NCBI GenBank assembly: GCA_000004695.1
Contig: CM000153.2
Span: 2,400,001-2,464,000, forward strand
Origin: Dictyostelium discoideum
Taxonomy: Eukaryota
Direction of reading: 5' to 3'
Length of the DNA stretch: 64,000 nucleotides
Below, one piece after another: positions 2,392 through 25,387 of the stretch. The translations under genes were made by a program, and so were the position numbers. The notes beneath the pieces were generated by a model, which ran no database searches, was not told the origin of the DNA, and saw nothing but the letters and a program-made list of their open reading frames with translations. Numbering within the stretch: position 1 is the stretch's first letter; the number at the start of each line of letters is the position of its first letter.

Positions 2392-2400
<9 letters not shown>

Positions 2401-5380
2401 TTGTTTTGCAACTTCAACATCACAAACCAAGAAATGACTACCAGCTGGTAAAAGTTGAGATGATTTTGAAGAAGTTGTTTTTAAAGCGAATAATACATTG
2501 GCAACTAAACAAGATGGTAAATTTTTATCATATAATTTTTTGAGGGCAGACATTGAATCATTTGAGACACAAACGATACCTTCTTCTAATTGATGACCAT
2601 AATATCTTTCACCTTTTAAGACGAATAAAGCTGTGCAACCTGCTTCAATCTTTGTAAATGTAATTGGAGAACCATTTATGAAATCCATTAATTTAATGTT
2701 CTCTCTTGAGCTGGTGGTTAAATCCTCTTCTAAAGCAGAAGCACGACGACCAGCTTCCAACAATTCCTCTTCGGTACCCATCCAACCAGATATTTTCTCT
2801 TGGAAACTTTCTTCCAAAAGGTGGATTAATTCTTTATTCTTTTCAGTTTGATTCTTACTATGATTTCTTTCAATTTGTTGAACTAATGCTTGGATTCTAT
2901 TTACAGAGATGTCACTTGGAGTTATACAAGTTAAATCTAAATCACCACTATTAAGGGTTTTAAGTGCTTTACCACCAGATCTATATTTTTCAAATCTATC
3001 CAAAATTAAAGCTGATGGTGTTTTCTTTTGACCAATACCTTTTTCAATTGATATGTTATCTGACGATGAAGTGGTAGTTGTAGTGGTTGTTGTAGTAGTG
3101 TCGTGAATATTAATCTTTGAGAAATCTTTAGTTGTTATTTCCATATTATTATTATTATTATTATTATTATTTGAGCCAGCAACACTTGCAATTGATTTTT
3201 CAATAGCCATATCAATTTCAAGATCGAAATCACTCTTAACTTTTGTAACAATGGCAGTGGTAGTATTGGTGGTTGAAGATGATACTAATGATTTCATTAA
3301 TTCTTCTTCTTCTTGTTTATTTAGCTCTACTTTGGTGGTTTCATCGGAATCTTCTAGATCAGATTCACTATCACTATCATCTAAATCTACTTTATTATAT
3401 TGAGCCAATAATTCAATATAAGTGAAACCATGATTATTTACAACACTAATGTCACAATTACTTTCGATTAAGTAGGTGACAATATCGGTATTATTGGTAA
3501 CGATTGCTTTGAAGATTGGTGTTTCACCATCACCATCGACGGCATTAATATTTGAACCAGCTTCAACCAATTTAACAAAGATATTGTAACGACCTAAAGC
3601 GGCAGCCCAATGTAATGGAGTCATACCAGTGTGATCCTTGATATCCAAAAGTCCATCACCCATGAATAAAAAGTGTTCAATGAAAATGGAAACGATACGA
3701 CAATTGTTATCTTGAACAGCATAATGGAAAGCGGTTAAACCACGGTTATCTTTACATTCAACCAATACGTCATATTGTTGACAAATGAATTTGACCAATC
3801 TATAATGACCACGTTCGGTGGCAATATGTAAACCGGTGGCACCAACATTATCGGCATTTAAAAGATCAAGATCACTACCGGATGCTTCGATCACTTGAGT
3901 GACCAATTCAATTGAACCTGAATAACAAGCCATATGGAAAACTGAGTGACTACTTCTATTCTTTATGGTTAAATCAGCACCCATTTCAATCAATTTCTCG
4001 ACCATATCAGTACGACCTTCCTTGGCAGCAATCATAATTAAAGTATTACCTTGTAAGTCTCTAATGGAATTGACGAAACCATCCTTTTCATCACCACTTA
4101 ATAAATCTTCTAATTCTTCAACTTCGCCATGGATTACACAATTCATATAGTTGAAATAACTTGGTGAAGAGTTCATATTGTTATTATTATTACCACTATT
4201 ACCACTGCTACCAGTGATGAAATAAGTTTGACTGTTACCACCAGCACCACCAACAGCACCATTAATGTACATACTATTTGAATAATCTTCACTTGATGGT
4301 GATGAAGGATTTCTATCGCCACCAAAATCAATTTGTTGACCACGTTGACGTTTTGGATTACCATCTTCTGGTAATTCATTATAGGTGAATGGATGTGGTT
4401 TACCGATTTTAGATTTATTTTTGACAGACTTTTCCTTATCTTTTTTGATGGTGTTTTTAGTGTAACGGGTGGTGACATTGTATGAACCAGGTGTTGAACG
4501 ATTTGGTGGAACAAAAGCAAAAGAGAAAGAGGTTTGATTTGGCATACGAAGTTGTTCTTGCTTTACAGAGTATGGTTGATGATCGGGAGATGGTTCCAAT
4601 GGATCGAGATCTACATAGAGAATTTCAGTACGACCTTTCTTAAAGTAGTAACCATAACAAGTTACCTCTGGCTCTTGACCACAATAACAAGAGTTTGGAA
4701 CTAAACGAGCTATATCTGGTGCTGGTAAGAGATCGGTATGGTAAAAGAGATTGATTGGTTGCGAAACAACTTCATTGAAACGTTCAAAAGTTCTCTTGTT
4801 GATTAAAGAGAATTTCAAACGGAATGAACTACATGGGTCATGTTTCTTACGATCGACGTGCATATCGGTGAATTTAAATTCAAATGTACCATCGATACAA
4901 GTAACGGCTGGTTGTGAAATAATGATTGAATCATCTGGCTCTGGATTTGCAACTACCATTAAATCATTGGCATCCCCTTTATAGTTGGCAACTTTGACAA
5001 CTGGTGCTGGAACGAGTACATGAGTTTTGACAGTATAAATTGGGAATGGTTGATTGTAACTATCTACAATTTCAACTTTTGGTCCATAGCTATTAATATT
5101 TACAGGTATATTATTAAAAATTTGTGGATTATTATTAATATTATTATTATTATTATTATTATTATTTCTTTGATTATTAGTTTGAATTTGTTGATTATTA
5201 TTTTGTTGTGGTCTTTGTGGTGATTGAATTAAACCATTATTAAATTGCATTGGTGATGATGCATAATCATTATTTGGTGTTGATGGTTCTGAATATTGGT
5301 TTTGAATTGCTGGCAGTATTAAATTATTACCAGTACTATTCATATTTATATTATTACTATTATTCATATTTATATTGTTA

Positions 5381-5444
<64 letters not shown>

Positions 5445-5689
5445 TATTATTATTACTATTATTATTACTATTATTATTCATATTATTGTTGTTGTTATTA
5501 TTATTATTATTATTATTATTGTTGTTGTTGTTGTTCATATATTGTTGTGTCATTTGTTGCTGCATAAATTGATTTTGGTATACTGATTGAGACGAGTTTG
5601 ATAAATCATTGAAATTATTGTTGTTATTATTATTATTATTACTATTAGTGTTGTTGTTGTTGTTATTACTATTATTATTGTTGATGTTG

Positions 5690-5733
<44 letters not shown>

Positions 5734-6247
5734 GTGATTGTTATTGTTGTTATTGTTATTATTATTATTTCCAAATGATGGTGATCTTATTGGAATTGAG
5801 CCCATTGAATTTATATTGTTGTTGTTGTTGTTATTATTATTATTGTGGTGGTGGTTGTTGTTGTTGTTGTTGTTGTTGCTATTATTATTATTATTATTAT
5901 TATTACTATTGTGGTGATGATGATTATTGTTGTGATTGTGGTTGTTGTTGTTATTATTATTATTGTTGTTGTTGTTGTTGTTGTTATTATTGTTGTTATT
6001 ATTATTACCACCATTATTACCATTATCTTGTTGTGGTGAATGTGGAACTGGCGAATAAACAATAGTATTTGGTTGTGACAATGGTGAGTGTGGTACCATC
6101 GATGTATGTTCATTATTGTTGGAGGTTGGTGCATTTTTAAAGACCAAATTGCCCAAAGCTATTTGTTGGTGAATGTATGACAAAAAGAATGGATCATTTA
6201 AATCTACAGATTGAGGATTGGTATTATTGTTGTTATTATTATTATTG

Positions 6248-6279
<32 letters not shown>

Positions 6280-6515
6280 GTTATTATTATTATTATAGTA
6301 ACCCATATTATTGTTATTACTGTAACTATTGTTGTTGTTATTATTATTATTATTACTATTATTATTATTATTATAGCAATTATTAGTATTATTATTATTA
6401 TTATTATTACTGTTATTGTCAAAAAAGATCTCGTCTGATCCATTAGACACATAACCATTCACAGAATCCTTGGTCATCATATTTCCATCGTCATTATTAT
6501 TGTTGTTGTTATTAA

Positions 6516-6547
<32 letters not shown>

Positions 6548-6579
6548 GAATATTGGTTGTTATTGTATGATTGATCCAT
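2392..6579 (-). CDS. Ankyrin-repeat protein (1395 aa) with very long N/Q/H low-complexity tracts and a conserved globular domain upstream of the ANK repeats; possible transcription regulator
   Basis: Single continuous ORF from the track. At least six ANK repeats (GNTLIMIAAKEGRTDMVEKLIEMGADL..., GLHIATERGHYRLVKFI..., TPLHWAAALGRYNIFVKLVEAGSNINAVDGDGETPIF). (ATT/GTT)n coding microsatellites at 5150-6560. Confidence 0.8.
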
Positions 6580-8232: not shown

Positions 8233-8462
8233 AAAAAATCTTGAAATAGTTTGGGTTATTTTCATTTTTTTTTCTTTTTTCTCTTTTCTTATTTTTTTTT
8301 GTTCACAAATCTTTTTTGTTTTTAGTAATAATTTGTCAGAGATCACATAAGTTTAGAACTTTATTATCAACCAACGAGTTAGTTTAAAATTATATTAAAA
8401 TAAAAATAAAAAATTCCAAAAAAAAAAAAAAAAAAAAAAAGGCCCAAAACCAGAATGTTTCA

Positions 8463-8463
<1 letters not shown>

Positions 8464-8532
<69 letters not shown>
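8464..8532. repeat. (A)69 homopolymer tract
   Basis: Uninterrupted A run. Similar shorter runs are throughout the intergenic DNA. Confidence 0.95.
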
Positions 8533-8534
<2 letters not shown>

Positions 8535-8565
8535 ATTATTTGATTATAATTTAATCAGTCTTTTC

Positions 8566-8597
<32 letters not shown>

Positions 8598-8601
<4 letters not shown>

Positions 8602-8745
8602 AACCTTATGAATAAATATAGTGTTGAGGTTTATAAAATGAAAGGCCCTTTAAGATTGTTAAAAAATTAGCAAAAATAGAAAGTTCTTTGTGTCAGCCAT
8701 ATAGGTCCAGGATTATGTTAATCTATTATTACCCATTCATTTTAT
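8598..8745. repeat. Repeat R2: diverged copy of R1
   Basis: Block-wise similarity to 7618-7765; see R1. Confidence 0.4.
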
Positions 8746-9122
8746 TTTTTATATTTTTTTATTTTTTTATTTTTTTTTTAAAAAACTTTTTCCTTTGCAA
8801 TCTAAGATTTTTTTTTTTTTAAAAAAGTATCTCAGTTCAATGTGATCTTAAAATAGAAAAATGTTTGTAAAATTTTTTTTTTTTTTCTATAATGTTATTC
8901 GTAATATTAACCTTTTATTTAGTTTTTTTTTTTTATATTTTTATATTTTTAAAAATATTTTCTAAAATAATATGTAAGAGTGTGGTTGAAAAAAAAAAAA
9001 AGGCTTTTTATTGAGATATTTTAATTTGGTGGTTTATTAAGTAATTAAAAATTATAAAATGATTTGGGATATTAATATTTTTAAATTTTAGAAATTTATT
9101 AAATGGCTTCTTTTAAATTCTG

Positions 9123-9165
<43 letters not shown>

Positions 9166-9368
9166 ATAAAAAGCAAAATTTAGGTGCCTTTTAAACTTTT
9201 AGTATTTATTAGATTATCTTTTTTGATAGTTACTCATATATTTTAAATTATTAAATACTCAAAGCCAATAAATAATTTAATCAAAAAGGGAAATAAATTT
9301 TATGGATTTTATCACATTCTTAAATGATTTTTTTTTTTAATTATTTGATTGAGAAATAATAAAAACAA

Positions 9369-9413
<45 letters not shown>

Positions 9414-9763
9414 TAAAAAAATATATTGTTATATTATATTTAAATGAAATTTCGTTTTTCTCAGTTTGATTTTTTAAACAGTTAAAATTTAAAAATGATC
9501 AATTGGAATGCAAAAATCCTTTTTTTTTTTTTTTTTTTTTTTAAAAAAAATAATATTTACTGTATAACATTATTATTATTTATAAAAACTGTTCTTTGAT
9601 ATATGTTGTTTCTAATAACATTTGATTTAAATTTGAATTTTTTTTTTTATGATATATCTTAAAATTTTATTTGTTGGCATTTTGGTTTCCTACATTATAT
9701 AAATAAATTAATTTGAAAAATCTTGTTGGTCAAAGTGGAAAATTAACACCTTTTTTTAAAATT

Positions 9764-11233
9764 TTATAATTTTAGATTATTAAAATCTTTAAGATTTTTA
9801 CGTAATAGTTTACCAGTTGCAGATTTAGGAATTGCAGGTATGAAAAAGATACCACCTCTGAAATGTTTATAATTTGCAATTTTTGGGTGAGCCCAATCCA
9901 AGAGTTCTTTTTCAGTAAGAGATTCATTTTGTTTAATAACAACGAAACCTCTTGGTACTTCACCCATATCACCTTTTGAAAGACCTACTACACAGGCATC
10001 TGCAACTTTTGGATGAGATAATAGTAATGCTTCTAATTCAGCAGGTGGTACTTGGAAACCTTTACATTTGATCAATTCCTTTGATCTATCGATGATAAAG
10101 AAATAACCATCTTCATCAACATAACCAATATCACCAGTTTTTAAGAATCCATCTTTATCTATGACTTCATTGGTTGCCTTTTCATTGTTATAATAACCCA
10201 ACATAACATTTGGACCTTTAATACAGATTTCACCCTTTTCACCCATACCTAAATTCTCACCAGTCTCTGAAGAGATGATTTTAGCTAATAGATTGGGTAA
10301 GAGGGTACCAGAGGAACCCGATTTAACTAATCCATTTGGGGTTACAAAACAACATGGACTAAGTTCGGTAGCACCATAACCTTGTTTAATTACAAGTCTG
10401 CCTTTGAATCTTTCTTTAATTAAATCTTCAATCTCTGAACCTAATGGAGCAGCACCACAAAATAGTGTACGTAAACTTGAGAGATCAAATTTATCGACGA
10501 TTGGTGATTTTGCAAACATGATAGCAATCGGTGGAACAATGAATGACATTGCAACCTTATACTTTTTAATTAATTCCAAGAATCTAACTGGTTCGAATTT
10601 TGGTAAGGTAACAATTCGATAACCTTGTTTCACCATCAACATTATGTGTAACATTAAACCAAAGGAATGAAAGAATGGTAAGACACCAATAACGCTATCA
10701 TTCTTTTTATAGGTTGATGTTTCAATGGTTTGAGTTTGATATGTATTTGAGACTAGATTATAGTGACTTAAACAAACACCTTTAAATAATCCAGTTGTGC
10801 CACTTGAAAATGGAATAATAGCTGTATCTTTCGTTAGATCAATTCTAACGATTGGGTAATCTTTACCATTATTATTAGTTAATTGATTAAACGACATTAC
10901 AATTCCATCACTAGATAAAGTTAATTGATCAATTTCTTTTAAAGTTTGACCTGCAATATCGACTAAAATCACTTTTTCAACACTTGGAAAAACTCTTTTT
11001 AAATCATTTTTAATCTTTTCATATACTGCTAATGTTACTGCTAAATATCTTGGTGAAACTGTTGCTAATGTATGTGATAACTCTTCAATTGTATAGTCTG
11101 GATTAACTAATGATGTAATGCCTCCCATCAATAATGTACCATGAAATATTGGTACATATTCTGGTAAATTTGGTAGAATTACTCCAAGTACATCACCTTT
11201 TTTAATATTTAATTTATTTAAACCACATGCAAC
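9764..11233 (-). CDS. 4cl: 4-coumarate-CoA ligase-like (AMP-dependent synthetase/ligase) copy A, exon 2 (incl. stop)
   Basis: ORF-track 455-aa ORF (first 'M' is TTG) extended upstream to the acceptor ag at 11235/11234. Contains the AMP-binding motif SSGTTGLFKGV and 4CL box II GEICIKGPNVMLGYYNN. Copy A ends NNLKL. The three 551-aa tandem genes match the known Dictyostelium 4cl1-3 family; which paralogue is which is not determinable here. Confidence 0.85.
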   Translation of the reverse strand, partial: VACGLNKLNIKKGDVLGVILPNLPEYVPIFHGTLLMGGITSLVNPDYTIEELSHTLATVSPRYLAVTLAVYEKIKNDLKRVFPSVEKVILVDIAGQTLKEIDQLTLSSDGIVMSFNQLTNNNGKDYPIVRIDLTKDTAIIPFSSGTTGLFKGVCLSHYNLVSNTYQTQTIETSTYKKNDSVIGVLPFFHSFGLMLHIMLMVKQGYRIVTLPKFEPVRFLELIKKYKVAMSFIVPPIAIMFAKSPIVDKFDLSSLRTLFCGAAPLGSEIEDLIKERFKGRLVIKQGYGATELSPCCFVTPNGLVKSGSSGTLLPNLLAKIISSETGENLGMGEKGEICIKGPNVMLGYYNNEKATNEVIDKDGFLKTGDIGYVDEDGYFFIIDRSKELIKCKGFQVPPAELEALLLSHPKVADACVVGLSKGDMGEVPRGFVVIKQNESLTEKELLDWAHPKIANYKHFRGGIFFIPAIPKSATGKLLRKNLKDFNNLKL

Positions 11234-11322
11234 CTAATTAAAAAATAATAAAAATAAAAATAAAAAAAAAAATTTTTAAAACTTGTTTGGAAATAGAAAA
11301 AAAAAAAAAAAAATTTATTTAC

Positions 11323-11508
11323 CTTTTCAATTGTATCAGCGACAAAATGTGAAGAATATTCTTTAAAAGTTAAACCATCAACTAATAAAACTTGATCAGG
11401 TTTATATCTTATATGTTTTAAAATTAAATGTGGTATTGGTTTCTCTGGTATTATAATATTTGGGTATTTTGATGTGAAATAAGTTTGTCCATTAATTATT
11501 CTAATCAT
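11323..11508 (-). CDS. 4cl: 4CL-like copy A, exon 1 (62 codons, MIRIINGQTYFTSKYPNIIIPEK...ADTIEK)
   Basis: ATG at 11508-11506. GTAAAT donor at 11322; 89-nt intron. Exon 1 + exon 2 = 1656 nt = 551 aa + stop. Confidence 0.8.
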
Positions 11509-11613
11509 CCTTAAATTTTTAATTTTTTTTTTTAAAATGGTATTGTGTTTATGCTATGGGTTATTATTTAAAAAATTTTCTGTTGGTATTAATATATTAC
11601 ATTTAAATAAAGG

Positions 11614-11652
<39 letters not shown>

Positions 11653-12111
11653 AACAGTTTTATTAATTGTTTGTTTTACTATTATTAATAGTAAATTTTT
11701 TTTTTTTTTTTTATATTTTTTATAGTATAAAAATGTGGTGTTTAGAAAAAATATCTCAAACTGGAGATTTTTCAAAAATAAAAATACTAACAAATATTTT
11801 TCTCTTGCCAAACATTTTTTATTTGTTTATTATTTTTTATTATTACTATAATTAATATTATGATTATTAAAAACTTATTAATATTAAACAATTTAATTCA
11901 TTACATATCAAAAATTAAAAAATTGCAATCGATAATAAAAAAAAAATCTTGGTCCATAATATTTTCTTTTTTTTTTTTGAAAATGTTTTTTTATTTTATT
12001 TTCTATTTTTTATTATATTTTTTTTTCCTCCCTACTGTTTTTTTATTTGTAATAAGTAAAAAAAAAAAAACACGGTAAAACCGAATCTCGAGAATATCTT
12101 TTAAAATTTTC

Positions 12112-12378
12112 TTAATGACAAGACCTAATTTTTTTTTTTTTATTTTTAAAACTTGTTTGGAAATAGAAAAAAAAAAAAAAAAATTTATTTACCTTTTCAA
12201 TTGTATCAGCGACAAAATGAGAAGAATATTCTTTAAAAGTTAAACCATCAACTAATAAAACTTGATCAGGTTTAGATCTAATATGTTTTAAAATTAATTG
12301 AGGTATTAGTTTCTCTGGTATTATAATATTTGGGTATTTTGATGCGAAATAAGTTTGTCCATTAATTATTCTAATCAT
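12112..12378 (-). pseudogene. Orphan duplicated 4CL first exon + intron remnant (no exon 2): truncated paralogue relic
   Basis: The exon 1 homologue is intact, with ATG at 12378 (MIRIINGQTYFASKYPNIIIPEKLIPQ...) and donor at 12192, and the intron copy is conserved. Similarity ends exactly at the acceptor (gacctaatt at 12124-12132). No downstream AMP-ligase exon exists before 4CL-A exon 1. Confidence 0.7.
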
Positions 12379-12836
12379 CCTAGAAATTTTTTTTTTTTTT
12401 TTTTAATAAACAATGGCGAAACTTAAATTAGGAGAATTTTGGAAAACAAAGAAATAATAAAAAAAAAGTTAAAAATAATAATTATTTATTTTTTAAAAAA
12501 TGGTATGGTGTTTAAAAAAAAAAGTTAAAAATAATAATTATTTATTTTTTGCCTCGTAAAAAAAAAAAATAATAAAGTATATTAATTTGTTTGTTTTAAT
12601 TAATTTTATGTTACGCCACATTAATTAATTTTATTTAGTATTTGGCTTTTATCGATAAAAGGTGTTTTTTTTTGTATACCTTTCTTCATTTATCCTAATC
12701 TTTTTAAATAATAAATTGAAAAAAAATCAATAAAATGTGAATAATAAAAATTTAGGTGCCGAAAAAAAGGTGTTTTGGATTTGTATGGGGTGGAAGAAAA
12801 TAAAAAAATATAAGTAAAAAAAAAAAAAGAGGAGTC

Positions 12837-12861
12837 AAACCCCACAAACGCCCCATAAAAT
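12837..12861 (+). promoter_or_regulatory. Two tandem DUSE-like motifs (ACCCCACAA / CCCCATAAA), the Dictyostelium upstream sequence element of ncRNA genes
   Basis: caaaCCCCACAAacgCCCCATAAAa matches the published DUSE consensus [AT]CCCA[CT]AA. A T-run lies ~150 bp downstream, at 13011-13025. Confidence 0.3.
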
Positions 12862-13290
12862 TACTTTTCACAAATAAAAAATTAAAAAAAAATAAAAAAA
12901 TACAAAAAAAAAGTGGTGTTGTCATAAATAGTAAATCACGCAAGATATTTTAGACTAGTAAAAAACAGTGCTATTTGAATTCAAACCGACATTAAAAAAT
13001 AATTTTATCTTTTTTTTTTTTTTTTAATTTAAAAAAACAGATGGTCTGTTTTTTTTTTTTTTTTTTTTTTTTTCTCCCCATCTGTTTTTTTAAATTAAAA
13101 GACCAGGAGAAAAAAAAATAAAAAAACAAAAAATATCAAAGAATTTTATTCAGTATTATTTAGAAAAAAGAAAATATTAATAATTTATACTAATAAAATA
13201 TATTTTTTTATATAGAATCAATCCAAAACATTAGTTTAGCAACTTGTTGTAAATTTTAAATTTTTATTTTTTATTATAATTTTATTTATT

Positions 13291-14760
13291 TTATAATTTC
13301 GGAGGATTAATATCTTTAAGATTTTTACGTAATAGTTTACCAGTTGCAGATTTAGGAATTGCAGGTATGAAAAAGATACCACCTCTGAAATGTTTATAAT
13401 TTGCAATTTTTGGATGAGCCCAATCCAAGAGTTCTTTTTCGGTTAGAGATTCATTTTGTTTAATAACAACGAAACCTCTTGGTACTTCACCCATATCACC
13501 TTTTGAAAGACCTACTACACAGGCATCTGCAACTTTTGGATGAGATAATAGTAATGCTTCTAATTCAGCAGGTGGTACTTGGAAACCTTTACATTTGATC
13601 AATTCCTTTGATCTATCGACGATAAAGTAATAACCATCTTCATCAACATAACCAATATCACCAGTTTTAAAGAATCCATCTTTATCTATGACTTCATTGG
13701 TTGCCTTTTCATTGTTATAATAACCCAACATAACATTTGGACCTTTAATACAGATTTCACCCTTTTCACCCATACCTAAATTCTCACCAGTCTCTGGAGA
13801 GATGATTTTAACCAATTGATTGGGTAAGAGGATACCAGCGGAACCAGATTTAATTAGTCCACTTGGAATTACAAAACAGGCTGGACTAAGTTCGGTAGCA
13901 CCATAACCTTGTTTAATTATGAGTTTTCCTTTGAATCTTTCTTTAATTAAATCTTCAACCTCTCTGCTTAATGGAGCAGCGCCACTAAATAGTGTACGTA
14001 AACTTGAGAGATCAAATTTATCGACGATTGGTGATTTTGCAAACATGATAGCAATCGGTGGAACAATGAATGAAATTGCAACCTTGTACTTTTGAATTAA
14101 ATCCAAGAATCTAACGAATTCAAATTTTGGTAGGATAACAACACAATGACCTTGTTTTACCATCAAAATTAGGTATGTCATTAAGCCATAGATATGAAAA
14201 AATGGTAGTTGACCCATAACTGTATCATTCTTTTTATAGTTTGTCGTTTCAACGGTTTGAGTTTGATGTGTATTGGAAACGAGATTATGATGACTTAAAC
14301 AAACACCTTTAAATAATCCAGTTGTACCACTTGAAAATGGAATAATAGCTGTATCTTTCTTTAGGTCAATTCTAACGATTGGGTAATCTTTACCATTATT
14401 ATTAATTAGTTGATTGAATGACATTACAATTCCATCACTAGATAAAGTTAATTGACCAATTTCCTTTAAAGTTTGACCTGCAATATCTACTAAAATCACT
14501 TTTTCAACACTTGGAAAAACTCTTTTTAAATCATTTTTAATCTTTTCATAAACTGCTAATGTTACTGCTAAATATCTTGGTGAAACTGTTGCTAATGTAT
14601 GTGATAGCTCTTCAATTGTATAGTCTGGATTAACTAATGATGTAATGCCTCCCATCAATAATGTACCATGAAATATTGGTACATATTCTGGTAAATTTGG
14701 TAGAATTACTCCAAGTACATCACCTTTTTTAATATTTAATTTATTTAAACCACATGCAAC
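13291..14760 (-). CDS. 4cl: 4CL-like copy B, exon 2 (incl. stop)
   Basis: 455-aa ORF plus upstream extension to acceptor ag at 14762/14761. About 90% identical to copy C. Ends ...NPPKL. Confidence 0.85.
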   Translation of the reverse strand, partial: VACGLNKLNIKKGDVLGVILPNLPEYVPIFHGTLLMGGITSLVNPDYTIEELSHTLATVSPRYLAVTLAVYEKIKNDLKRVFPSVEKVILVDIAGQTLKEIGQLTLSSDGIVMSFNQLINNNGKDYPIVRIDLKKDTAIIPFSSGTTGLFKGVCLSHHNLVSNTHQTQTVETTNYKKNDTVMGQLPFFHIYGLMTYLILMVKQGHCVVILPKFEFVRFLDLIQKYKVAISFIVPPIAIMFAKSPIVDKFDLSSLRTLFSGAAPLSREVEDLIKERFKGKLIIKQGYGATELSPACFVIPSGLIKSGSAGILLPNQLVKIISPETGENLGMGEKGEICIKGPNVMLGYYNNEKATNEVIDKDGFFKTGDIGYVDEDGYYFIVDRSKELIKCKGFQVPPAELEALLLSHPKVADACVVGLSKGDMGEVPRGFVVIKQNESLTEKELLDWAHPKIANYKHFRGGIFFIPAIPKSATGKLLRKNLKDINPPKL

Positions 14761-14838
14761 CTAATTGAAAAATAATAAAAATAAAAATAAAAAATTGATA
14801 TTAGTTTTGGAAAAAAAAAAAAAAAGAAATTTATTTAC

Positions 14839-15024
14839 CTTTTCAATTGTATCAGCGACAAAATGTGAAGAATATTCTTTAAAAGTTAAACCATCAACTA
14901 ATAAAACTTGATCAGGTTTCGATCTAATATGTTTTAAAATTAAATGTGGTATTGGTTTCTCTGGTATTATAATATTTGGGTATTTTGATGTGAAATAAAT
15001 TTGTCCTTTAATCATTCTAATCAT
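14839..15024 (-). CDS. 4cl: 4CL-like copy B, exon 1
   Basis: ATG 15024-15022 (MIRMIKGQIYFTS...). GTAAAT donor at 14838; 78-nt intron. Total 551 aa. Confidence 0.8.
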
Positions 15025-15363
15025 CCTGAAATTGTTATTTTTTTTTTTAAAAATATCAAAAAAAAAAAAGAATAAAATAAAACTTAAACCAGGAGAATTT
15101 TGAAAAAAAAAAATATTTAAATTTAAAATGTTAAAAAATGGTATGGATGTGTTTAAGCTATGGGCTAATATTTAAATAATATACAATAGGTAATATTTTA
15201 CAAACAAATTAAAAAATTAAAAAAATATCAAAAAAAAAAAAAATTAAATAAAAAAAAAAAAAAAAAATCAAGTTTAAAAATTTGTGTGTTTTAATTATTA
15301 TTATATTAGACACATTAATTAGTTTTATTATTATTATTTTTTCTTTTTTTTCTACTTTAAAAA

Positions 15364-15399
<36 letters not shown>

Positions 15400-16041
15400 A
15401 TTTTTTAAAATGTGTGGTTTAGGAATAAGATCCCTCAAATAAGATTATGCCAATTGAAAATTATAAAAAATTAATTTTCCAATATAAAGAATAAACAAAG
15501 AAAAAATGTTTTGCACTGGGTTTATAAAATTAAACAAAAATTTAATATAAATTAAAACAATCTCTCATTTTTCAAAAATGATTCAATCAATTAAAAAAAT
15601 GAAAGATTGCAAAATTTTATTAATTTAAAATTAAGTTTATTAATATCTTCGGTGAAAAAAAGAAAATTCACAGAAGAAAAAAAAAAAAAAAATCATTTTC
15701 CACATAAAACTATTCAAATTAATTTATTTATTCAAACAAATAAAAATTTATGAAATATTTGAAATATCTAATAAAGAAAAAAAATCGAAATAATATACAT
15801 ATAGCATATTGAATAGTTTTAAAAAAAAAACAAAATTCAAACCAAATATTATTAAAAACTAAAGAATGTTTTTCAGTAAATATTATTTAGAAAAAAAGAA
15901 AAAAATTTAATAATCTATGCCAATATTATATATATTTTTTTTTATAGAATCACATTAGTTTAATAACTTGTTGTAAGTTGTGTTTAAATTTTTATTTTTC
16001 GACTTAAGTTTAATTTTTTATTTTTTATTTTTTATTTTATT

Positions 16042-17511
16042 TTATAATTTTGGAGGATTAAAATCTTTAAGATTTTTACGTAATAGTTTACCGGTTGCAG
16101 ATTTAGGAATTGCAGGTATGAAAAAGATACCACCTCTGAAATGTTTATAATTTGCAATTTTTGGATGGGCCCAATCTAAGAGTTCTTTTTCGGTTAGAGA
16201 TTCATTTTGTTTAATAACAACGAAACCTCTTGGTACTTCACCCATATCACCTTTTGAAAGACCTACTACACAGGCATCTGCAACTTTTGGATGAGATAAT
16301 AGTAATGCCTCCAATTCGGCAGGAGGTACTTGGAAACCTTTACATTTGATCAATTCCTTTGATCTATCGACGATAAAGTAATAACCATCTTCATCGACGT
16401 AACCAATATCACCAGTTTTTAAGAATCCATCTTTATCTATGACTTCATTGGTTGCCTTTTCATTGTTATAATAACCCAACATAACATTTGGACCTTTAAT
16501 ACAGATTTCACCCTTTTCACCCATACCTAAATTCTCACCAGTCTCTGGAGAGATGATTTTAGCCAATTGATTGGGTAAGAGGATACCAGCGGAACCAGAT
16601 TTAACTAATCCACTTGGAATTACAAAACAGGCTGGACTAAGTTCGGTAGCACCATAACCTTGTTTAATTACAAGTCTGCCTTTGAATCTTTCTTTAATTA
16701 AATCTTCAACCTCTGAACTCAATGGAGCAGCACCACTAAATAGTGTACGTAAACTTGAGAGATCAAATTTATCGACGATTGGTGATTTTGCAAACATGAT
16801 AGCAACTGGTGGAACAATGAATGAAATTGCAACCTTATACTTTTGAATTAACTCCAAGAATCTAACTGGTTCAAATTTTGGTAAGACAACAACACGATGA
16901 CCTTGTTTCACCATCAACATTAAGAATAACATTAAACCATAGATATGAAAGAAAGGTAATATACCCATAACTGTATCATTCTTTTTATAGGTTGATGTTT
17001 CAATGGTTTGAGTTTGATATGTATTGGAAACGATATTATGATGACTTAAACAAACACCTTTAAATAATCCAGTTGTACCACTTGAAAATGGAATAATAGC
17101 TGTATCTTTCTTTGGGTCAATTCTAACGATTGGGTAATCTTTACCATTATTATTAATTAGTTGATTGAATGACATTACAATTCCATCACTAGATAAAGTT
17201 AATTGATCAATTTCTTTTAAAGTTTGACCTGCAATATCGACTAAAATCACTTTTTCAACACTTGGAAAAACTCTTTTTAAATCATTTTTAATCTTTTCAT
17301 ATACTGCTAATGTTACTGCTAAATATCTTGGTGAAACTGTTGCTAATGTATGTGATAACTCTTCAATTGTATAGTCTGGATTAACTAATGATGTAATGCC
17401 TCCCATCAATAATGTACCATGAAATATTGGTACATATTCTGGTAAATTTGGTAGAATTACTCCAAGTACATCACCTTTTTTAATATTTAATTTATTTAAA
17501 CCACATGCGAC
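16042..17511 (-). CDS. 4cl: 4CL-like copy C, exon 2 (incl. stop)
   Basis: 455-aa ORF plus extension to acceptor ag at 17513/17512. Ends ...NPPKL. Confidence 0.85.
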   Translation of the reverse strand, partial: VACGLNKLNIKKGDVLGVILPNLPEYVPIFHGTLLMGGITSLVNPDYTIEELSHTLATVSPRYLAVTLAVYEKIKNDLKRVFPSVEKVILVDIAGQTLKEIDQLTLSSDGIVMSFNQLINNNGKDYPIVRIDPKKDTAIIPFSSGTTGLFKGVCLSHHNIVSNTYQTQTIETSTYKKNDTVMGILPFFHIYGLMLFLMLMVKQGHRVVVLPKFEPVRFLELIQKYKVAISFIVPPVAIMFAKSPIVDKFDLSSLRTLFSGAAPLSSEVEDLIKERFKGRLVIKQGYGATELSPACFVIPSGLVKSGSAGILLPNQLAKIISPETGENLGMGEKGEICIKGPNVMLGYYNNEKATNEVIDKDGFLKTGDIGYVDEDGYYFIVDRSKELIKCKGFQVPPAELEALLLSHPKVADACVVGLSKGDMGEVPRGFVVIKQNESLTEKELLDWAHPKIANYKHFRGGIFFIPAIPKSATGKLLRKNLKDFNPPKL

Positions 17512-17558
17512 CTAATTGAAAAATAAATAAAAATAAATAAAAAAACTATTAATATTTG

Positions 17559-17591
<33 letters not shown>

Positions 17592-17598
17592 TATTTAC

Positions 17599-17784
17599 CT
17601 TTTCAATTGTATCAGCGACAAAATGTGAAGAATATTCTTTAAAAGTTAAACCATCAACTAATAAAACTTGATCAGGTTTAGATCTAATATGTTTTAAAAT
17701 TAATTGTGGTACTGGTTTCTCTGGTATTATAATATTTGGGTATTTTGATGTGAAATAAGTTTGTCCTTTAACTTTTATAATCAT
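17599..17784 (-). CDS. 4cl: 4CL-like copy C, exon 1
   Basis: ATG 17784-17782 (MIIKVKGQTYFTS...). Donor at 17598; 87-nt intron. Confidence 0.8.
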
Positions 17785-18208
17785 CCTGAAATTATTATTT
17801 AAAGTTGAAAAAAAAAAAAAAAAAAAAAAAGAAAATATAATAAATTAAAACAAAAATGAAAAGAATATTGGGAGTAAAGAAAAAATAATAAAATTTAAAA
17901 AAAAAAGTTAAAAATAATTGGTTATTTTTTTTAAAAAATGGTGTGAATGTGTTTATGCTATGGATTAATATCTAATAATTTACAAAGGTATTTTACAAAT
18001 AAATATCTAAAAAAAAAAAAAACTAATTTTAAAAAAAAAAAAAAAAAAATTAATTTAAAAAAAAAAAAAAAAAATTAATTAAAAAAAAAAAAAAAAAAAA
18101 AAATCGAACGTTTGATTTTTTTAACTGAAATTTCCAATCGTCATAATATCCTAAATTAATTTAAATGATGGTTTTTTGAAATTACAAACATTGCGCAAAT
18201 ATTAAAAC

Positions 18209-18239
<31 letters not shown>

Positions 18240-18842
18240 CTTTTATTTTTTAATATTAAAATTTTTTTTTTTGTTTTGTGTTTTGTTTAATTTTGTTTTG
18301 TTTTTTTTTTTTTATTTTATTTTTATTTTTTATCTTTTTTATTTTTACCTGAAAACCTTATTTGATTTTGAAAATGTTAAAAAAACAAAACCTGACGACA
18401 TATGATGAATTTTTATTTTTATTTTTATACCACCATATTATTTTTTTTAATTTTTTTAATTTTTTTTATTTGACAATTCAAGTAATTTTTTATAAGCTTT
18501 CCCAAATAGGATGGAAATAATTTTTTTGTTTTAAGATTTTTTTTGTTTTATTAATTTAAAAAAAAAAATTATTAAAAAAAAAAAAGAATGAATATTTGTT
18601 AACTCAATCGAATAAATAAATATTTTAAACCATACAATCCAAATTAAAAAATATATATATATTTGGAAAATAACCTTAATATTTAATTTCTGGAAAATAC
18701 AAATGGAGAGGGAGATATGAATTTTTTTTTTTTTTATATCGATAAAGTACTTTATTTTATTATTTTTATTTTATTATTTTGTTATTTTATTATATTATTT
18801 TTAATTATTATTTATTTATTATTTTTTTATTTTTTTATTTTT

Positions 18843-21462
18843 TTACATATTTTTATATTTTGCTTCTAAAGTTAAAATTGCATTTGGAGAAATTCTTTTT
18901 GTTCTTTGTAAGAAATCAATAATGATTTTACCTTCTTCTAGAGAAAAGAAAGGTTGACTCATTTTCTCTAAAAGATAATTTAATAATTCATCCTCTGCGG
19001 AAAGGGCTTGATAAAATTGACGAATACGGTCAAAGAAAATCTCACGTTTTACAATGATATTTGAAAGATTCTGTTGAAGTGTGAACACATTTTTACAAAG
19101 TTTAGCAACACCATTATCATTGATTGAATTGACATGTACCAATTTCGAGATTAATAATTTACCAATTAATTTTGCAATACCACTAAATAAGAAATTACAT
19201 TTATCACTTGTTAAATAAATTGACATCATTTCTTCACTTGCTGATAAATCTTTATTCAATTCAACAATGAATGAATCAGGATCAGTTCTTTCCTCTTCAC
19301 ACATATATTGAGCTCTCTTAAATCCTTCTAAAAAGTAAAAACAATGAATACGATATTCAATACGTAATGCTAATAAACAACGTTTTGATAAATCTTTAAA
19401 TCTTTGTGCAATATCCTTAATTGGTTCTTCCATTGTTTTCAATGCTTCAATTGATTCTGCTGACATTTGATTAAATGTACCTATAAAATTATTACTACCA
19501 GTAGTTGTACTATTATTTTCTTTATTACTTGCTGTACTATTACCACCACTATTAATACCACTATTTAATTTCGATGGTGTTTTAATAGAATCAACTTGTT
19601 GTTGCTGTTGTTGTTGTTGCTGTTGTTGTTGTGTATATTTTTCTTTTTGATCTTCTTGAACAATTAATAATTGAACAATTTTATCAGCTAACCAATTTAA
19701 ACTATGACTCATATTGGCCAACATTGTTAATTTTTCAATATTTAAAATTAATTGATTCTTTAAAACTGGTTTTTCAGGATGATTGAATAAATCAGACTCT
19801 AATTTAAATTCATATTCTTCCTCTCTTGAATCTTGAAATTTAGCAACATCTTGTTTCTTTGAACTTACAGCTAATGATGCTAATAGATATTTATAGAGAT
19901 CTGTATTCAATAGTTGATTAGTTAATGTTGGATCTATTTCTTGACTGAATTTACTTAAACATTTTTCATAATATCTTAAGAGTGATACTTGAATGATTGC
20001 ACCAAACTCTACGACATAATGACTCATAGCCACAATATCAGAGAAAAGTTCAATAACAAATTGAAATATTTGTAAGGTACTATTTAAAATTGGTTTAGTT
20101 TCTTTTAATCTAAATACTAATTTATATCTTTCCAATGGTTTGAATGCTTCTGTACTTTCAATTGAATGAGCGAATCTATCCTTATAATCATTCTTTATAT
20201 GTTGTAAAAAGTTTCTATGAACAAAATCATCTATATATAATCTTAATAAACCTTTTTTACTATTTTGATTATGATAACTATTTGTAGTAGTAGTAGTAAT
20301 GGTGGTGGTGGTTTTAGTAGTTGTTGGTGTACCAGTTCTATCTCTAAGGGTTTTATCTAAATGGTCAGTAAACTTGACAATCATTGGATAAATTGGTGTA
20401 ACATTATATTGTGAAGCTTTAAATATACTAATTACAGCAGGACCACCACTATTTGAATCAATAGCATCAGCACCTGAAGTACCATTTGGTGAAGTTGGTG
20501 AAGTTGTTACCATTGGACTAATTGAACCATTCCAATTATCAGTAACAATTGAATTTGTAAAACTAAATAGTCTTTGAGACTTACCACTATTTGATTCAGT
20601 ACCATCTGGATTTAATCTACTCTTTGTACTTAATAATAAACTTGATGTATCTTGTAAATGAACTCTTAACATTTCTCTAATCTCTTTTTGAATGATTTCC
20701 CAAACTAATGATGCATCATAAACATCTGCAATTTCAACTTTTGATTTTTGAAGTTTAGTTGGTTTTGGTGTACCTTCGAAATCATTATCGGAATCACCAC
20801 CACCACCCTCAGTTTCTTCTTTAAAATCAAATTTATTTGCACGAATTTTTAATTCACTTTTTCTAATTGCATCATTAAAAATTTTACTTAATTGAAGATG
20901 ATTCTTGAAAACCATATTAACTTTATTGAATATCATTTTCAATAAATCTACCAATGGTATATTGTGAGTTTGATTAGCTAATAAATCATTTCTATTGAAA
21001 GTTTCAGTCAAGAAATTGAATGCTGCTGAATATTCATCGATATTACTAAATGTTGCACTACCAATATGTGAATTCTTACTTAATACACTTGGTGATAATC
21101 CATTAGCCCCAATATTTGATGATGTTGAGGATGTTGGTGATGATGACGATGCTGTAGAACCATTACCATTTATACCACCACTACCATTCATACTATTATT
21201 ACCACCACCATTGCTACCATTACTACCATTACTACTATTTGATGATTCGCCAGGCATCTTTGGTATAACTCTACCTTCACTATGATATACATTGGTAATA
21301 AGTGTTATACTATTTGTAATTGCAGTCTTTAATTCAATTGAAATTCTACCTAAAATTAAACCAACCGCTGGTGATAAATATTCTAAAACATTCAATGCTT
21401 CAACTAATAATGTCATAAATAATTTTCCATCTTGTTCTGGATCAATATTTAAATCTTCTTTA

Positions 21463-21464
<2 letters not shown>
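18843..21464 (-). CDS. exoc4: Exocyst complex component 4 (Sec8), exon 5 (last, incl. stop)
   Basis: C-terminal blocks SKRCLLALRIEYRIHCFYFL, LNKDLSASEEMMS and AKLCKNVFTLQQNLSNI match the conserved Sec8 C-terminus. The frame is open upstream of the track's M (SKEDLNIDPEQDGKLF-M) back to acceptor ag at 21466/21465. Confidence 0.8.
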
Positions 21465-21507
<43 letters not shown>

Positions 21508-21568
21508 ATTTAACATATTAGAATAATAAATAATAAATAATAACTAATAAAATTATATTTATACAAAC

Positions 21569-21791
21569 ATTTGAAGTTTTAGAAATTTCTTCAAGTTTTA
21601 AAACTTCTGGTTGATTAGATTGTGATAATCTTTCTTGATTATATAAATTTGCAGCTGCTTTTTCAGCTTTTTCTTGACTCGCTTTAGTTTGAAAAGCACC
21701 TGTAAATTGTGGTTTAAATGGTGATGTCGTAGTCGGTGGTAGTGGTGATTTAAAAGTATTATTACTATTATTACTATTACTATTCTTGTTA
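21569..21791 (-). CDS. exoc4: exoc4 exon 4
   Basis: Open frame (NKNSNSNNSNNTFKSPLPPTTTSPFKPQFTGAFQTKASQEKAEKAAANLYNQ...KTSN). Non-canonical GTTTGT donor at 21568; acceptor ag at 21793/21792. Phases consistent. Confidence 0.6.
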
Positions 21792-21881
21792 CTAATATTT
21801 GTATTGTTTTTTAATATTAATATATTATTATTATTATTAAATTATAATTTTGAAAAAAAAAAAAAAAAAAAAATACAATAC

Positions 21882-22178
21882 GATAATAAAATTTTCTTAA
21901 AATTTGATTGTAAATTATTTTCATCATCATATTCAAATGCTTTTAAAGATGATTTAGTTTTTAAATAAATATGGTCATTTAATTTCTCAACTAACATATC
22001 TTTGAATGATTCTTTCTTTTCAACTAACATTTGTCTAAGATCCATTAATGCATTAACATTAACAAGATCCCTTTCATTTAAAGTTGATATTGAATTTACT
22101 AATATATTTGCTGCATGTACAAAATGATTTCCTTTAATATATTTATTTAATAAATCTGGTACTTTTTTTAATTCTTCC
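21882..22178 (-). CDS. exoc4: exoc4 exon 3
   Basis: EELKKVPDLLNKYIKGNHFVHAANILVNSISTLNERDLVNVNALMDLRQM... GTATTG donor at 21881; acceptor ag at 22180/22179. Confidence 0.6.
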
Positions 22179-22274
22179 CTATAAAAATATATAAAAAATA
22201 AATAAAAAAAAATTATTATTTATTATTTATTATTTATTTTTTATTATTATTTTATTATTATTTATAATTATTAC

Positions 22275-22476
22275 ATTTTCTCTAAAATTTCAATCATATA
22301 ATAATATTCTAAATTTCTTTTCCATAATCTTTCTATACCTGTACCATTAAAATTGATAAGTTTATTAGTCTCTTCAACTTCTTTACTCATTAATAAAGCA
22401 TTACCATGTGATGTACCCATAAATTCTAAAATTCTAGAATAATTGTGAATGGATTTATTGAATCCTTGAAAGTAAA
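22275..22476 (-). CDS. exoc4: exoc4 exon 2
   Basis: YFQGFNKSIHNYSRILEFMGTSHGNALLMSKEVEETNKLINFNGTGIERLWKRNLEYYYMIEILEK. GTAATA donor at 22274; acceptor ag at 22478/22477. Confidence 0.6.
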
Positions 22477-22496
22477 CTGTATATATATATAGTATG

Positions 22497-22574
<78 letters not shown>
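22497..22574. repeat. (ATT)26 microsatellite inside exoc4 intron 1
   Basis: Perfect trinucleotide run. Confidence 0.9.
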
Positions 22575-22630
22575 TTATTACAAATATATTAGAAATTGTT
22601 TTAAAATTGTAAAGAAAAATCAAAAATTAC

Positions 22631-22835
22631 CATCAACAATATTATCAGTTTCAACATTAACTTCATCTAACCAATCACCAATTTGATTAAGTAATTCTTT
22701 TCTATTTGATGATCTCATATAATCTAATGCAGTTCTTCTTGCTTGAAATGAGGTTTTATGATATTGTTCGGGTATACTCGATAATACCTTTGATATCTTA
22801 TTTTCATCTAATTTCTTTTCTTCATTGTCATCCAT
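22631..22835 (-). CDS. exoc4: exoc4 exon 1
   Basis: ATG 22835-22833 (MDDNEEKKLDENKISKVLSSIPEQYHKTSFQARRTALDYMRSSNRKELLNQIGDWLDEVNVETDNIVD). GTAATT donor at 22630. The five exons sum to 3549 nt = 1182 aa + stop. Confidence 0.65.
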
Positions 22836-23375
22836 TTTTCTTTTTTTTTTTTTTTTTTCTATTTCTTTTATAAATACATAAATATTTGTACAATAAATTA
22901 TTGAAAAAAAAAAAAAAAAAAAAAATTTTGTTTCGACCCAGTGGATTTTTTTTTTTTAATTAATTTTTTTTAAGCATTTTCATATTTATTTTTTAATTTT
23001 TTTTATTTTTTTTAATTTTTTTATTTTCCAATTCGTTTTAAATTGCTTAATTGGACAAAATAAAAAATAATAATACATGTATTATTATTCGAATTTCTTA
23101 CTTTTTTTTCACATATAATCATTTTTCATATTATTTCCGCCTTTAAGTGGTAAATTCTCAAAAAAAAAAAAAAAGAAAAAAAAAAAAAAAAAACCCATTA
23201 AAAGATTTTTTAAAAGAAAGAAATAGTTTATCTTTTTTTTGGTATTATTGGAGATAATTTTGATGATTTAAAAAGATATAAAAAAATTGGATATAAAGAT
23301 AAATTACAAAATAAAATAAACAATTTTAATATTTAATTTCTTTTTATTTATTTTTTTTAATTTTATTTTAACAAT

Positions 23376-25035: not shown

Positions 25036-25120
25036 CTATATATATAAATAGTAAAAAAAAAAAAAAATTAATTAAAAAAAAAATAATAAACTTTATTTAA
25101 ATTTATTATATAATACATAC

Positions 25121-25279
25121 GAAATTCTACTTAAAATTATTTTTAAATCTTTAATATTTTTTAAATTATCTAATAATTCAAATTTTAATGATGAGTTTTC
25201 TTGTGAAGAAAAAAATTGAATTAAATTTTGTCTTTCTTCAATAACAAATCTATTTCTTGATGGTCTCATAAACCAAGTT
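25121..25279 (-). CDS. msh5: msh5 exon 5
   Basis: TWFMRPSRNRFVIEERQNLIQFF... GTATGT donor at 25120; acceptor ag at 25281/25280. Confidence 0.6.
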
Positions 25280-25387
25280 CTAAAATTAAAAAAAAAAAAA
25301 AAAAGTACTGTTTAATAGTTATATTATAATATAATATATCATTATATTCTTCAATATTGAAAATTATTGATTAAAAAAATATATTAC

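Follow-up and report, generated by a model that had tools for sequence, protein, structure and literature searches.

The 64,000-nt window analyzed here (positions 2,400,001 to 2,464,000, forward strand, of Dictyostelium discoideum contig CM000153.2 in assembly GCA_000004695.1; G+C content, ~22%) carries three tandem genes, 4cl1, 4cl2, and 4cl3, which in D. discoideum AX4 are named “probable 4-coumarate--CoA ligase” 1, 2, and 3. They form a real array that varies in copy number, and we consider it likely that it encodes peroxisomal acyl-CoA ligases and is homogenized by gene conversion except around the substrate pocket. The pattern is an ordinary, textbook one in gene-family evolution, and finding the genes adds nothing new, as all three are already annotated in GenBank, UniProt, and dictyBase.

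Results

The array begins with 4cl1 (copy C; Q54P77, XP_638381.1), which adjoins the Sec8 gene, continues with 4cl2 (copy B; Q54P78, XP_638380.1), and ends with 4cl3 (copy A; Q54P79, XP_638379.2); the three UniProt entries are exact protein matches to the copies. All lie on the minus strand: 4cl1 at 16042..17784 (exon 1, 17599..17784; intron, 17512..17598, 87 nt; exon 2, 16042..17511), 4cl2 at 13291..15024 (exon 1, 14839..15024; intron, 14761..14838, 78 nt; exon 2, 13291..14760), and 4cl3 at 9764..11508 (exon 1, 11323..11508; intron, 11234..11322, 89 nt; exon 2, 9764..11233). Each combines a 62-codon exon 1 with a 489-codon exon 2 and encodes 551 amino acids, and the repeat periods are 3527 bp (A to B) and 2751 bp (B to C). 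A preliminary description of this DNA had proposed exactly these structures, with introns of 78 to 89 nt, and these start-to-start spacings. Its estimate of ~90% identity between B and C was too low, since the measured values are 94.7% for protein and 96.0% for DNA (A and C, 92.9% and 95.2%; A and B, 90.9% and 94.1%). It had also singled out copy A as the more diverged, especially after box I; the concentration after box I is borne out, but A lies only slightly beyond B, with 53 nucleotide differences unique to it compared to 41 in B and 23 in C.

Artificial duplication of one gene during assembly, one of the circumstances under which the preliminary description would have failed, has nothing in its favor except the high similarity of the copies, and we give it practically no chance. 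The AX4 copies differ pairwise at 67 to 97 positions of the coding sequence (CDS), as well as in intron lengths and flanks. Furthermore, the independent chromosome-level assembly GCA_054883475.1 is colinear with window positions 25037..8462 at 99.56% identity and holds the three genes along with an orphan exon, and the copies are therefore not assembly duplicates. Arrays of several copies are found in four other lineages (FIZ, FIY, FIR, and FIW) as well.

We compared the syntenic locus (a MutS-like gene, Sec8, 4cl, and a gene for a protein of ~1400 amino acids) in nine other assemblies. There is one copy in each of D. purpureum, D. firmibasis, D. citrinum, and D. dimigraforme; two in “D. cf. 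discoideum” FIZ; three, one of them truncated, plus a 3' fragment in “D. cf. discoideum” FIY; three in D. discoideum FIR; five plus an inverted exon-2 fragment in D. discoideum FIW; and three plus the orphan exon in AX4 and the AX4-like assembly. Protein trees and trees of nonsynonymous distance (dN) resolve three types, C, B, and A. The C type (4cl1) always directly follows Sec8, hardly varies, and has its nearest relatives in the single-copy genes of D. citrinum, D. dimigraforme, and D. firmibasis; 4cl1 is the conserved, ancestral-type copy. B-type copies of AX4, FIW (FIW_2), and FIR (FIR_10663, P0008) share the derived residues T236N, I246Q, L257T, F258Y, and P277F, and A-type copies of AX4, FIW (three copies), and FIY share Y253F, V298I, S321C, S327G, A356S/C, I360T, S362N, A370S, and Q377L.

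In the flanking Sec8 gene, too, FIW and FIR differ from AX4 by ~7%, and they are distinct lineages, not near-identical strains. Their assemblies (GCA_054859355.1 and GCA_054859385.1, labeled Dictyostelium discoideum; L001 and L002) are ~92.5% identical to AX4 over the Sec8 and MutS-like genes (compared to window positions 15685..25325), which suggests cryptic species instead of strains. Unusually high polymorphism of the 4cl array within D. discoideum was considered and rejected, because the flanking Sec8 gene is equally diverged (~92.5% identity). The inverted exon-2 fragment of FIW lies between copies 3 and 4 (L001 12649..12866), and the FIY array includes one copy truncated at its 5' end and, apart from it, a 3' fragment (L004 10001..11270 and 14016..14710). 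Copies 2 and 3 of FIR (L002 10001..11724 and 12766..14509) contain frameshifts when read with the canonical two-exon structure, and their reading frames stop after 75 and 103 codons; the deposited FIR models of 543 and 538 amino acids bypass these lesions, and the two copies are either pseudogenes or products of homopolymer errors in the assembly.

Gene conversion is indicated by the opposite grouping of silent and amino acid-changing sites. Trees of synonymous distance (dS) group the copies by genome, while those of nonsynonymous distance group them by type. In five quartets, each of two types by two lineages, parsimony-informative patterns at synonymous sites grouped by genome in 14 to 23 cases versus 3 to 5 by type, and those at nonsynonymous sites grouped by type in 13 to 22 cases versus 3 to 6 by genome (Fisher P = 1e-6 to 4e-4). 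The by-genome silent sites fall mainly in codons 10 to 205, 303 to 347, and 381 to 534, and the by-type sites in codons 3 to 25 and 218 to 377. Flank dS is 0.06 to 0.13 within a genome and 0.12 to 0.23 between lineages within a type.

Positional orthology of the noncoding flanks crosses lineages. The 3' flank of 4cl2 matches those of FIW_2 and FIR_2 at explicit coordinates, and the region upstream of 4cl3 matches that of FIW_4, to which 4cl3 is orthologous. Summed bits over the AT-rich flanks, a noisy comparison, were highest for the 3' flank of 4cl3 against those of the last FIW copy and of the only D. firmibasis gene. Both signs of concerted evolution are thus present, silent likeness within a genome and positional orthology of flanks across lineages. 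The types would pre-date the lineage splits, with conversion homogenizing the outer parts of the genes, especially codons ~30 to 205 and ~380 to 551, and type-specific amino acids persisting in the substrate-binding region between box I and box II. The low apparent divergence of the copies should not be read as youth of the array, because type-specific residues are common to lineages ~7% apart and silent sites are homogenized within each genome.

The copies have diverged at unequal rates. With outgroups as the reference, Tajima relative-rate comparisons count 32 unique residue changes in 4cl3 versus 2 in 4cl1 (P = 3e-7) and 23 in 4cl2 versus 2 in 4cl1 (P = 3e-5), and every other lineage has the same asymmetry. 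Measured to D. citrinum, dN rises from 0.030 (C) through 0.054 (B) to 0.061 (A), with dS equal at ~0.31 to 0.35. The pairwise alignment and dN/dS analysis proposed in the preliminary description gave ratios among the AX4 copies of 0.27 to 0.42 overall and 0.39 to 0.51 in codons 181 to 385, with divergence concentrated after box I; A-type copies compared across lineages have ratios of ~0.2 to 0.3. Purifying selection persists, and constraint is relaxed rather than lost. Pairwise dN/dS gave no region-wide signal of positive selection.

The substrate-binding region (codons 216 to 395, from box I to box II) lies at 10235..10774 in 4cl3, 13762..14301 in 4cl2, and 16513..17052 in 4cl1, all on the minus strand. 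Of the 25 derived residues shared by A-type copies, 20 lie between box I and box II, compared to an expectation of 33% (binomial P = 1.6e-6). Several coincide with the pocket of the poplar enzyme Pt4CL1. At residue 253, equivalent to Pt4CL1 Tyr-236, all A-type copies have F, whereas B and C have Y; in plant 4-coumarate-CoA ligases (4CLs), this pocket tyrosine stacks on the aromatic ring. Residue 257 (Pt4CL1 Ser-240) is T in the B type through L257T. Residues 320 and 321 correspond to Pt4CL1 Lys-303 and Ser-304; S321C is present in every A-type copy and F320S in the four A-type copies outside AX4, while AX4 4cl3 keeps F. Residue 356, which follows the equivalent of Pt4CL1 Pro-337, and position 252 are also changed in the A type, so that residues 252 and 253 read SF or IF in the 4cl3 type and IY in 4cl1 and 4cl2.

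The pine paralogs Ps4CL2 and Ps4CL3, which are recent and ~90% similar, differ at the same pocket dipeptide, VF versus IY (PMC12917453). This dipeptide separates the cinnamate-preferring Ps4CL2 from Ps4CL3, although swapping it alone did not transfer substrate preference (PMC12917453). In contrast to the probably peroxisomal Dictyostelium copies, the pine enzymes are true cytosolic 4CLs. Of the substrate subfunctionalization suggested in the preliminary description, the substrate-related divergence of the paralogs has good support from the comparative data, and the pocket substitutions make it most likely that 4cl2 and 4cl3 would accept different carboxylic-acid substrates.

The encoded proteins belong to the ANL superfamily. 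The two Pfam domains exceed their gathering cutoffs (PF00501, AMP-binding, 252.5 bits with a cutoff of 29.9; PF13193, AMP-binding_C, 65.6 bits with a cutoff of 24.5), and box I and the C-terminal catalytic lysine are present. Box I (SSGTTGLFKG, compared to the P-loop-like motif SSGTTGxPKG) occupies residues 205 to 214 in all three copies; box II (GEICIKG, residues 396 to 402) carries a conservative R-to-K change relative to GEICIRG; and the catalytic residues Lys-537 (aligned with Pt4CL1 Lys-523), Lys-451, and Gln-456 are all retained. The closest solved structures are Pt4CL1 and tobacco Nt4CL2 (E = 3e-113 to 3e-116, 382 to 392 bits), followed at full length by the Drosophila fatty-acyl-CoA synthetase CG6178 (PDB 7KYD; E ~ 1e-104, 354 bits), an ancestral luciferase (7e-103), and other luciferases (~1e-94), and the margin separating these classes of relatives is small. 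Among NCBIfam models, those for long-chain-fatty-acid-CoA ligases match best, although none reaches its cutoff. By their domains and motifs, the proteins can be classed as two-domain adenylate-forming 4CL-like or luciferase-like acyl/aryl-CoA ligases, which would use ATP to form an acyl-AMP and then pass the acyl group to CoA.

The hydroxycinnamate pocket code of Pt4CL1 (Tyr-236, Ser-240, Lys-303, Gly-306, Gly-331, Pro-337, and Val-338), a list of residues that reportedly goes back to Hu et al. 2010, is largely absent. Ser-240 is replaced by L or T, Lys-303 by F, and Gly-306 by A; a deletion that includes Val-338 and its neighbors shortens the loop after Pro-337 by five residues; and only Tyr-236 (in 4cl1 and 4cl2 only), Gly-331, and Pro-337 are kept. 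Ser-240, Lys-303, and Gly-306 are important in Pt4CL1 (PMC5239791).

At their C termini, copies B and C end in -NPPKL and copy A in -NNLKL. The tripeptide codons lie on the minus strand at 13294..13302 (4cl2, PKL), 16045..16053 (4cl1, PKL), and 9767..9775 (4cl3, CTA AAA TTA, LKL). As the preliminary description had noted, these ends resemble peroxisomal targeting signals of type 1 (PTS1); both PKL> and LKL> are validated plant PTS1 tripeptides, the latter verified in Arabidopsis CPK1 (PMC8886021). All other full-length D. discoideum-complex copies examined end in -PKL, with the exception of FIR_10663 (NPSKL), as do the proteins of D. citrinum, D. dimigraforme, D. firmibasis, and D. purpureum. 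Orthologs in other dictyostelids end in -SKL (Cavenderia fasciculata), -AKL (Polysphondylium violaceum), or -SHL, -SNL, -SAL, or -PSL. The nearest nondictyostelid eukaryotic homologs end in -AKL, -SKL, -SKM, or -HKL, and bacterial homologs lack such an end. The series of ortholog ends supports peroxisomal targeting and suggests an ancestral, maintained peroxisomal location, with import by Pex5.

The -LKL end is confined to 4cl3 of the AX4 lineage. An alignment of the 3' ends of 13 copies reads AAT CCT CC(A/G) AAA TTA TAA everywhere except in AX4 4cl3, where AAT AAT CTA AAA TTA TAA reflects three changes within 5 nt of an otherwise invariant stretch. A-type orthologs of other lineages keep PKL, and -LKL therefore appears to be a recent event in the AX4 lineage and not a feature of the paralog type, which leaves little of the earlier suggestion that the copies have subfunctionalized in localization. 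At most, -LKL would weaken peroxisomal import.

Between 4cl2 and 4cl3, an orphan unit on the minus strand at 12142..12643 consists of an upstream region, an intact exon 1 (12193..12378, with an ATG and a GT donor), and the first ~50 nt of an intron, without exon 2. It lies inside the interval covered by the preliminary description (9764 to 17784) and had been overlooked there; its presence explains why the A-to-B period exceeds the B-to-C period by 776 bp. Positions 12142..12406, which comprise the exon 1 copy, promoter, and intron start, are 95.8% identical to the exon 1 region of 4cl3, and ~270 nt of upstream sequence is retained. The upstream region matches that of 4cl2 at 76% identity over 543 nt by self-BLAST, and by position the unit with its upstream region is the ortholog of gene 3 in the FIW and FIR arrays (88% over ~390 nt). 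The orphan is best explained as the relic of a deleted fourth gene of the A type. The description of the locus as a tandem triplication is thus right as to a genuine tandem array of paralogs, but AX4 also retains the remains of a fourth unit, and the copy number in related lineages runs from one to five.

A plausible history starts from one gene between Sec8 and the large downstream gene. Tandem duplication in the D. discoideum complex would have produced types C, B, and A, with later changes in copy number by unequal exchange and deletion. The flank orthologies of the orphan (to the third gene of FIW and FIR) and of 4cl3 (to FIW_4) imply that the AX4 ancestor would have had at least C-B-A1-A2; the orphan would then be what remained of A1 once a deletion of ~2.7 kb had taken its exon 2.

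It is conceivable, although on balance improbable, that the orphan exon 1 is transcribed from a promoter of its own and provides 4cl3 with an alternative start. Joined to the 4cl3 acceptor (11233/11234), its donor would keep the reading frame and give a product of 551 amino acids with four different residues, and an obsolete model of 663 amino acids (P0123) had joined the orphan exon 1 to 4cl3. Local splicing at a retained TTAG would yield a dead-end peptide of 69 amino acids.

Upstream of 4cl3 is a G/C-containing box on the minus strand at 11534..11559, CCATAGCATAAACACAATACCATTTT. Variants that are 3 nt longer, CCATAGCWTAAACACATYCAYACCATTTT, lie at 15135..15163 (4cl2) and 17935..17963 (4cl1), and an indel-tolerant alignment places half a box upstream of the orphan (12497..12513), all on the same strand. 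As a CA/GT-rich element, CCATAGCWTAAACAC(ATYC)AYACCATTTT, it is conspicuous amid A/T-only upstream DNA. Its distance from the ATG is -51 in 4cl3, -139 in 4cl2, and -179 in 4cl1, and the -51 position is common to AX4 4cl3 and FIW_4. The promoter motif that the preliminary description gave for every copy matches, as typed, only 4cl3 (11534..11560, 0 mismatches); with up to three mismatches allowed, it had no second match, and indel-tolerant alignment was needed to find the variant of 4cl2 and 4cl1. The box is found only in copies of the D. discoideum complex and is absent upstream of the single-copy genes of the four related species. It may be a regulatory element or may be conserved merely as part of the duplicated unit.

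Self-BLAST aligned 13138-15280 with 15861-18085 at 89% identity over 2240 nt, so that the B and C units share, besides the genes, 3' spacers (13138..13290 and 15861..16041) and 5' flanks (15025..15280 and 17785..18085) on the minus strand. By the same comparison, homology with copy A ends at 9761, 3 nt beyond the 4cl3 stop codon. About 200 nt downstream of the 4cl2 stop, at 13023..13099, is a perfect 22-nt palindrome around a 33-nt run of T, with arms TTTAATTTAAAAAAACAGATGG and CCATCTGTTTTTTTAAATTAAA.

The Sec8 gene upstream of the array (18843..~22320) is a poly-Q/poly-N-rich exocyst gene with an open reading frame of 857 amino acids (18843..21416) and further exons. The downstream gene (2392..6579) encodes ~1395 amino acids with no Pfam match. 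Both neighbors are syntenic in all dictyostelid loci compared. A tRNA scan of the 64-kb window, made for the context of tRNA-associated retroelements, found none.

Discussion

Taken at face value, the database name would make the products of these genes bona fide 4-coumarate:CoA ligases with a role in a phenylpropanoid- or polyketide-type pathway, a reading that we regard as distinctly unlikely. The plant 4CLs (Populus tomentosa 4CL1, PDB 3A9U/3NI2; Nicotiana tabacum 4CL2, PDB 5BSM) are indeed the best-scoring solved relatives, at 382 to 392 bits compared to 354 for CG6178. They have the same full-length two-domain ANL architecture and share box I, box II, the catalytic Lys and Gln, Gly-331, and Pro-337 with the Dictyostelium copies, and the 4cl1 and 4cl2 types also keep the pocket Ile-Tyr pair. 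However, pocket residues singled out in Pt4CL1 (Ser-240, Lys-303, and Gly-306; PMC5239791) are replaced in the Dictyostelium copies, which also have a shorter loop, and Tyr-236 is F in the 4cl3 type. The Dictyostelium proteins, moreover, bear a PTS1-like end, score almost as well against fatty-acyl-CoA synthetase and luciferase relatives, and have sub-threshold long-chain-fatty-acid-CoA ligase models as their best NCBIfam matches. A PTS1-like end is typical of peroxisomal 4CL-like and luciferase-like enzymes and not of cytosolic plant 4CLs. As most pocket residues are not conserved and the best family models are those of fatty-acid-CoA ligases, we treat 4CL as a name given by homology. It is probably misleading, and true 4-coumarate ligase function is doubtful.

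CG6178 and firefly luciferase belong to the same clade and are nearly equally similar to the Dictyostelium copies. They and the Arabidopsis 4CL-like acyl-CoA synthetases, such as OPCL1, carry a C-terminal tripeptide of the PTS1 type, SKL, where the Dictyostelium copies have the PTS1-like but noncanonical PKL or LKL; this comparison is one of similarity and not of orthology. By their localization and substrates, OPCL1, CG6178, and firefly luciferase belong to a peroxisomal class of acyl-CoA synthetases. 4CL-like genes with substrates other than hydroxycinnamates are a recognized class (PMC5239791, citing Koo 2006 and Kienow 2008).

Two further readings concern the history and fate of the copies. 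If each lineage had duplicated the gene recently and independently, with no conversion and with the A- and B-type residues convergent, then synonymous trees would group by genome and copy number would vary between lineages, as both do. Such convergence would be extraordinary, however, given at least 10 identical derived residues in the A-type copies of three lineages and 5 in the B-type copies, and the noncoding flanks cross lineages as well (the -51 box in 4cl3 and FIW_4, the orphan with FIW_3 and FIR_3, and the B 3' flank with FIW_2 and FIR_2); we find this reading very improbable. Decay is the more serious rival, although still an unlikely one: 4cl3, and perhaps 4cl2, could be redundant, with the pocket substitutions and the change from PKL to LKL reflecting neutral erosion. 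Nonsynonymous change is 2-fold faster (~16-fold in unique residues), singleton substitutions are numerous in AX4 4cl3, these arrays often contain fragments and truncated copies, and three substitutions within 5 nt alter its otherwise invariant C terminus. However, the open reading frame, splice sites, and all catalytic motifs are intact, the A-type dN/dS between lineages is still ~0.2 to 0.3, and the type-specific residues are fixed across lineages, having resisted the conversion that homogenized the flanks.

The reading that we prefer, a converted and functionally diverging array of probably peroxisomal ligases, has the following points against it. A run-length permutation test for conversion tracts in the three AX4 copies alone, which has low power, was not significant (P = 0.11 to 0.37), and the case for conversion therefore rests on the comparison across lineages. 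The central region offers too few synonymous sites for dating the types, and homopolymer errors are possible in several of the assemblies compared. Pocket residues were mapped by pairwise sequence alignment to Pt4CL1 and not by structure. PKL and LKL fall outside the canonical [SAC][KRH][LM], and two papers on Dictyostelium peroxisomes mention only SKL-type signals. Literature searches on the Dictyostelium 4cl genes found no experiment on localization, substrate, or expression.

The array resembles the concerted evolution of tandem paralogs under selection for differences, a general phenomenon with the same silent homogenization, retained diagnostic residues, variable copy number, and relic fragments, and nothing unusual was detected in it. 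Within this scheme, 4cl1 would keep the ancestral sequence while 4cl2 and 4cl3 would have accumulated substitutions in the pocket. It is possible, but on balance improbable, that 4cl2 and 4cl3 are neofunctionalized peroxisomal aryl/acyl-CoA ligases in which the pocket changes (L257T; Y253F, S321C, A356S/C, and I360T) are held by selection against ongoing conversion, widening the substrate range of the D. discoideum complex. If so, the enzymes could, for example, activate aromatic acids derived from prey or soil or provide starter units for the large polyketide machinery, the variation from one to five copies would be adaptive, and 4cl3 may be shifting toward the cytosol in the laboratory lineage via the change from PKL to LKL.

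For work on these enzymes, 4cl1 would be the copy in which to look for the ancestral function, and 4cl2 and 4cl3 those in which to look for new specificities. The -LKL end is peculiar to the laboratory lineage, and localization results from AX strains may not generalize. That the low divergence conceals an older, converted family of variable copy number is of consequence wherever reads are mapped, genes knocked out, or orthologs assigned in Dictyostelium comparative genomics.

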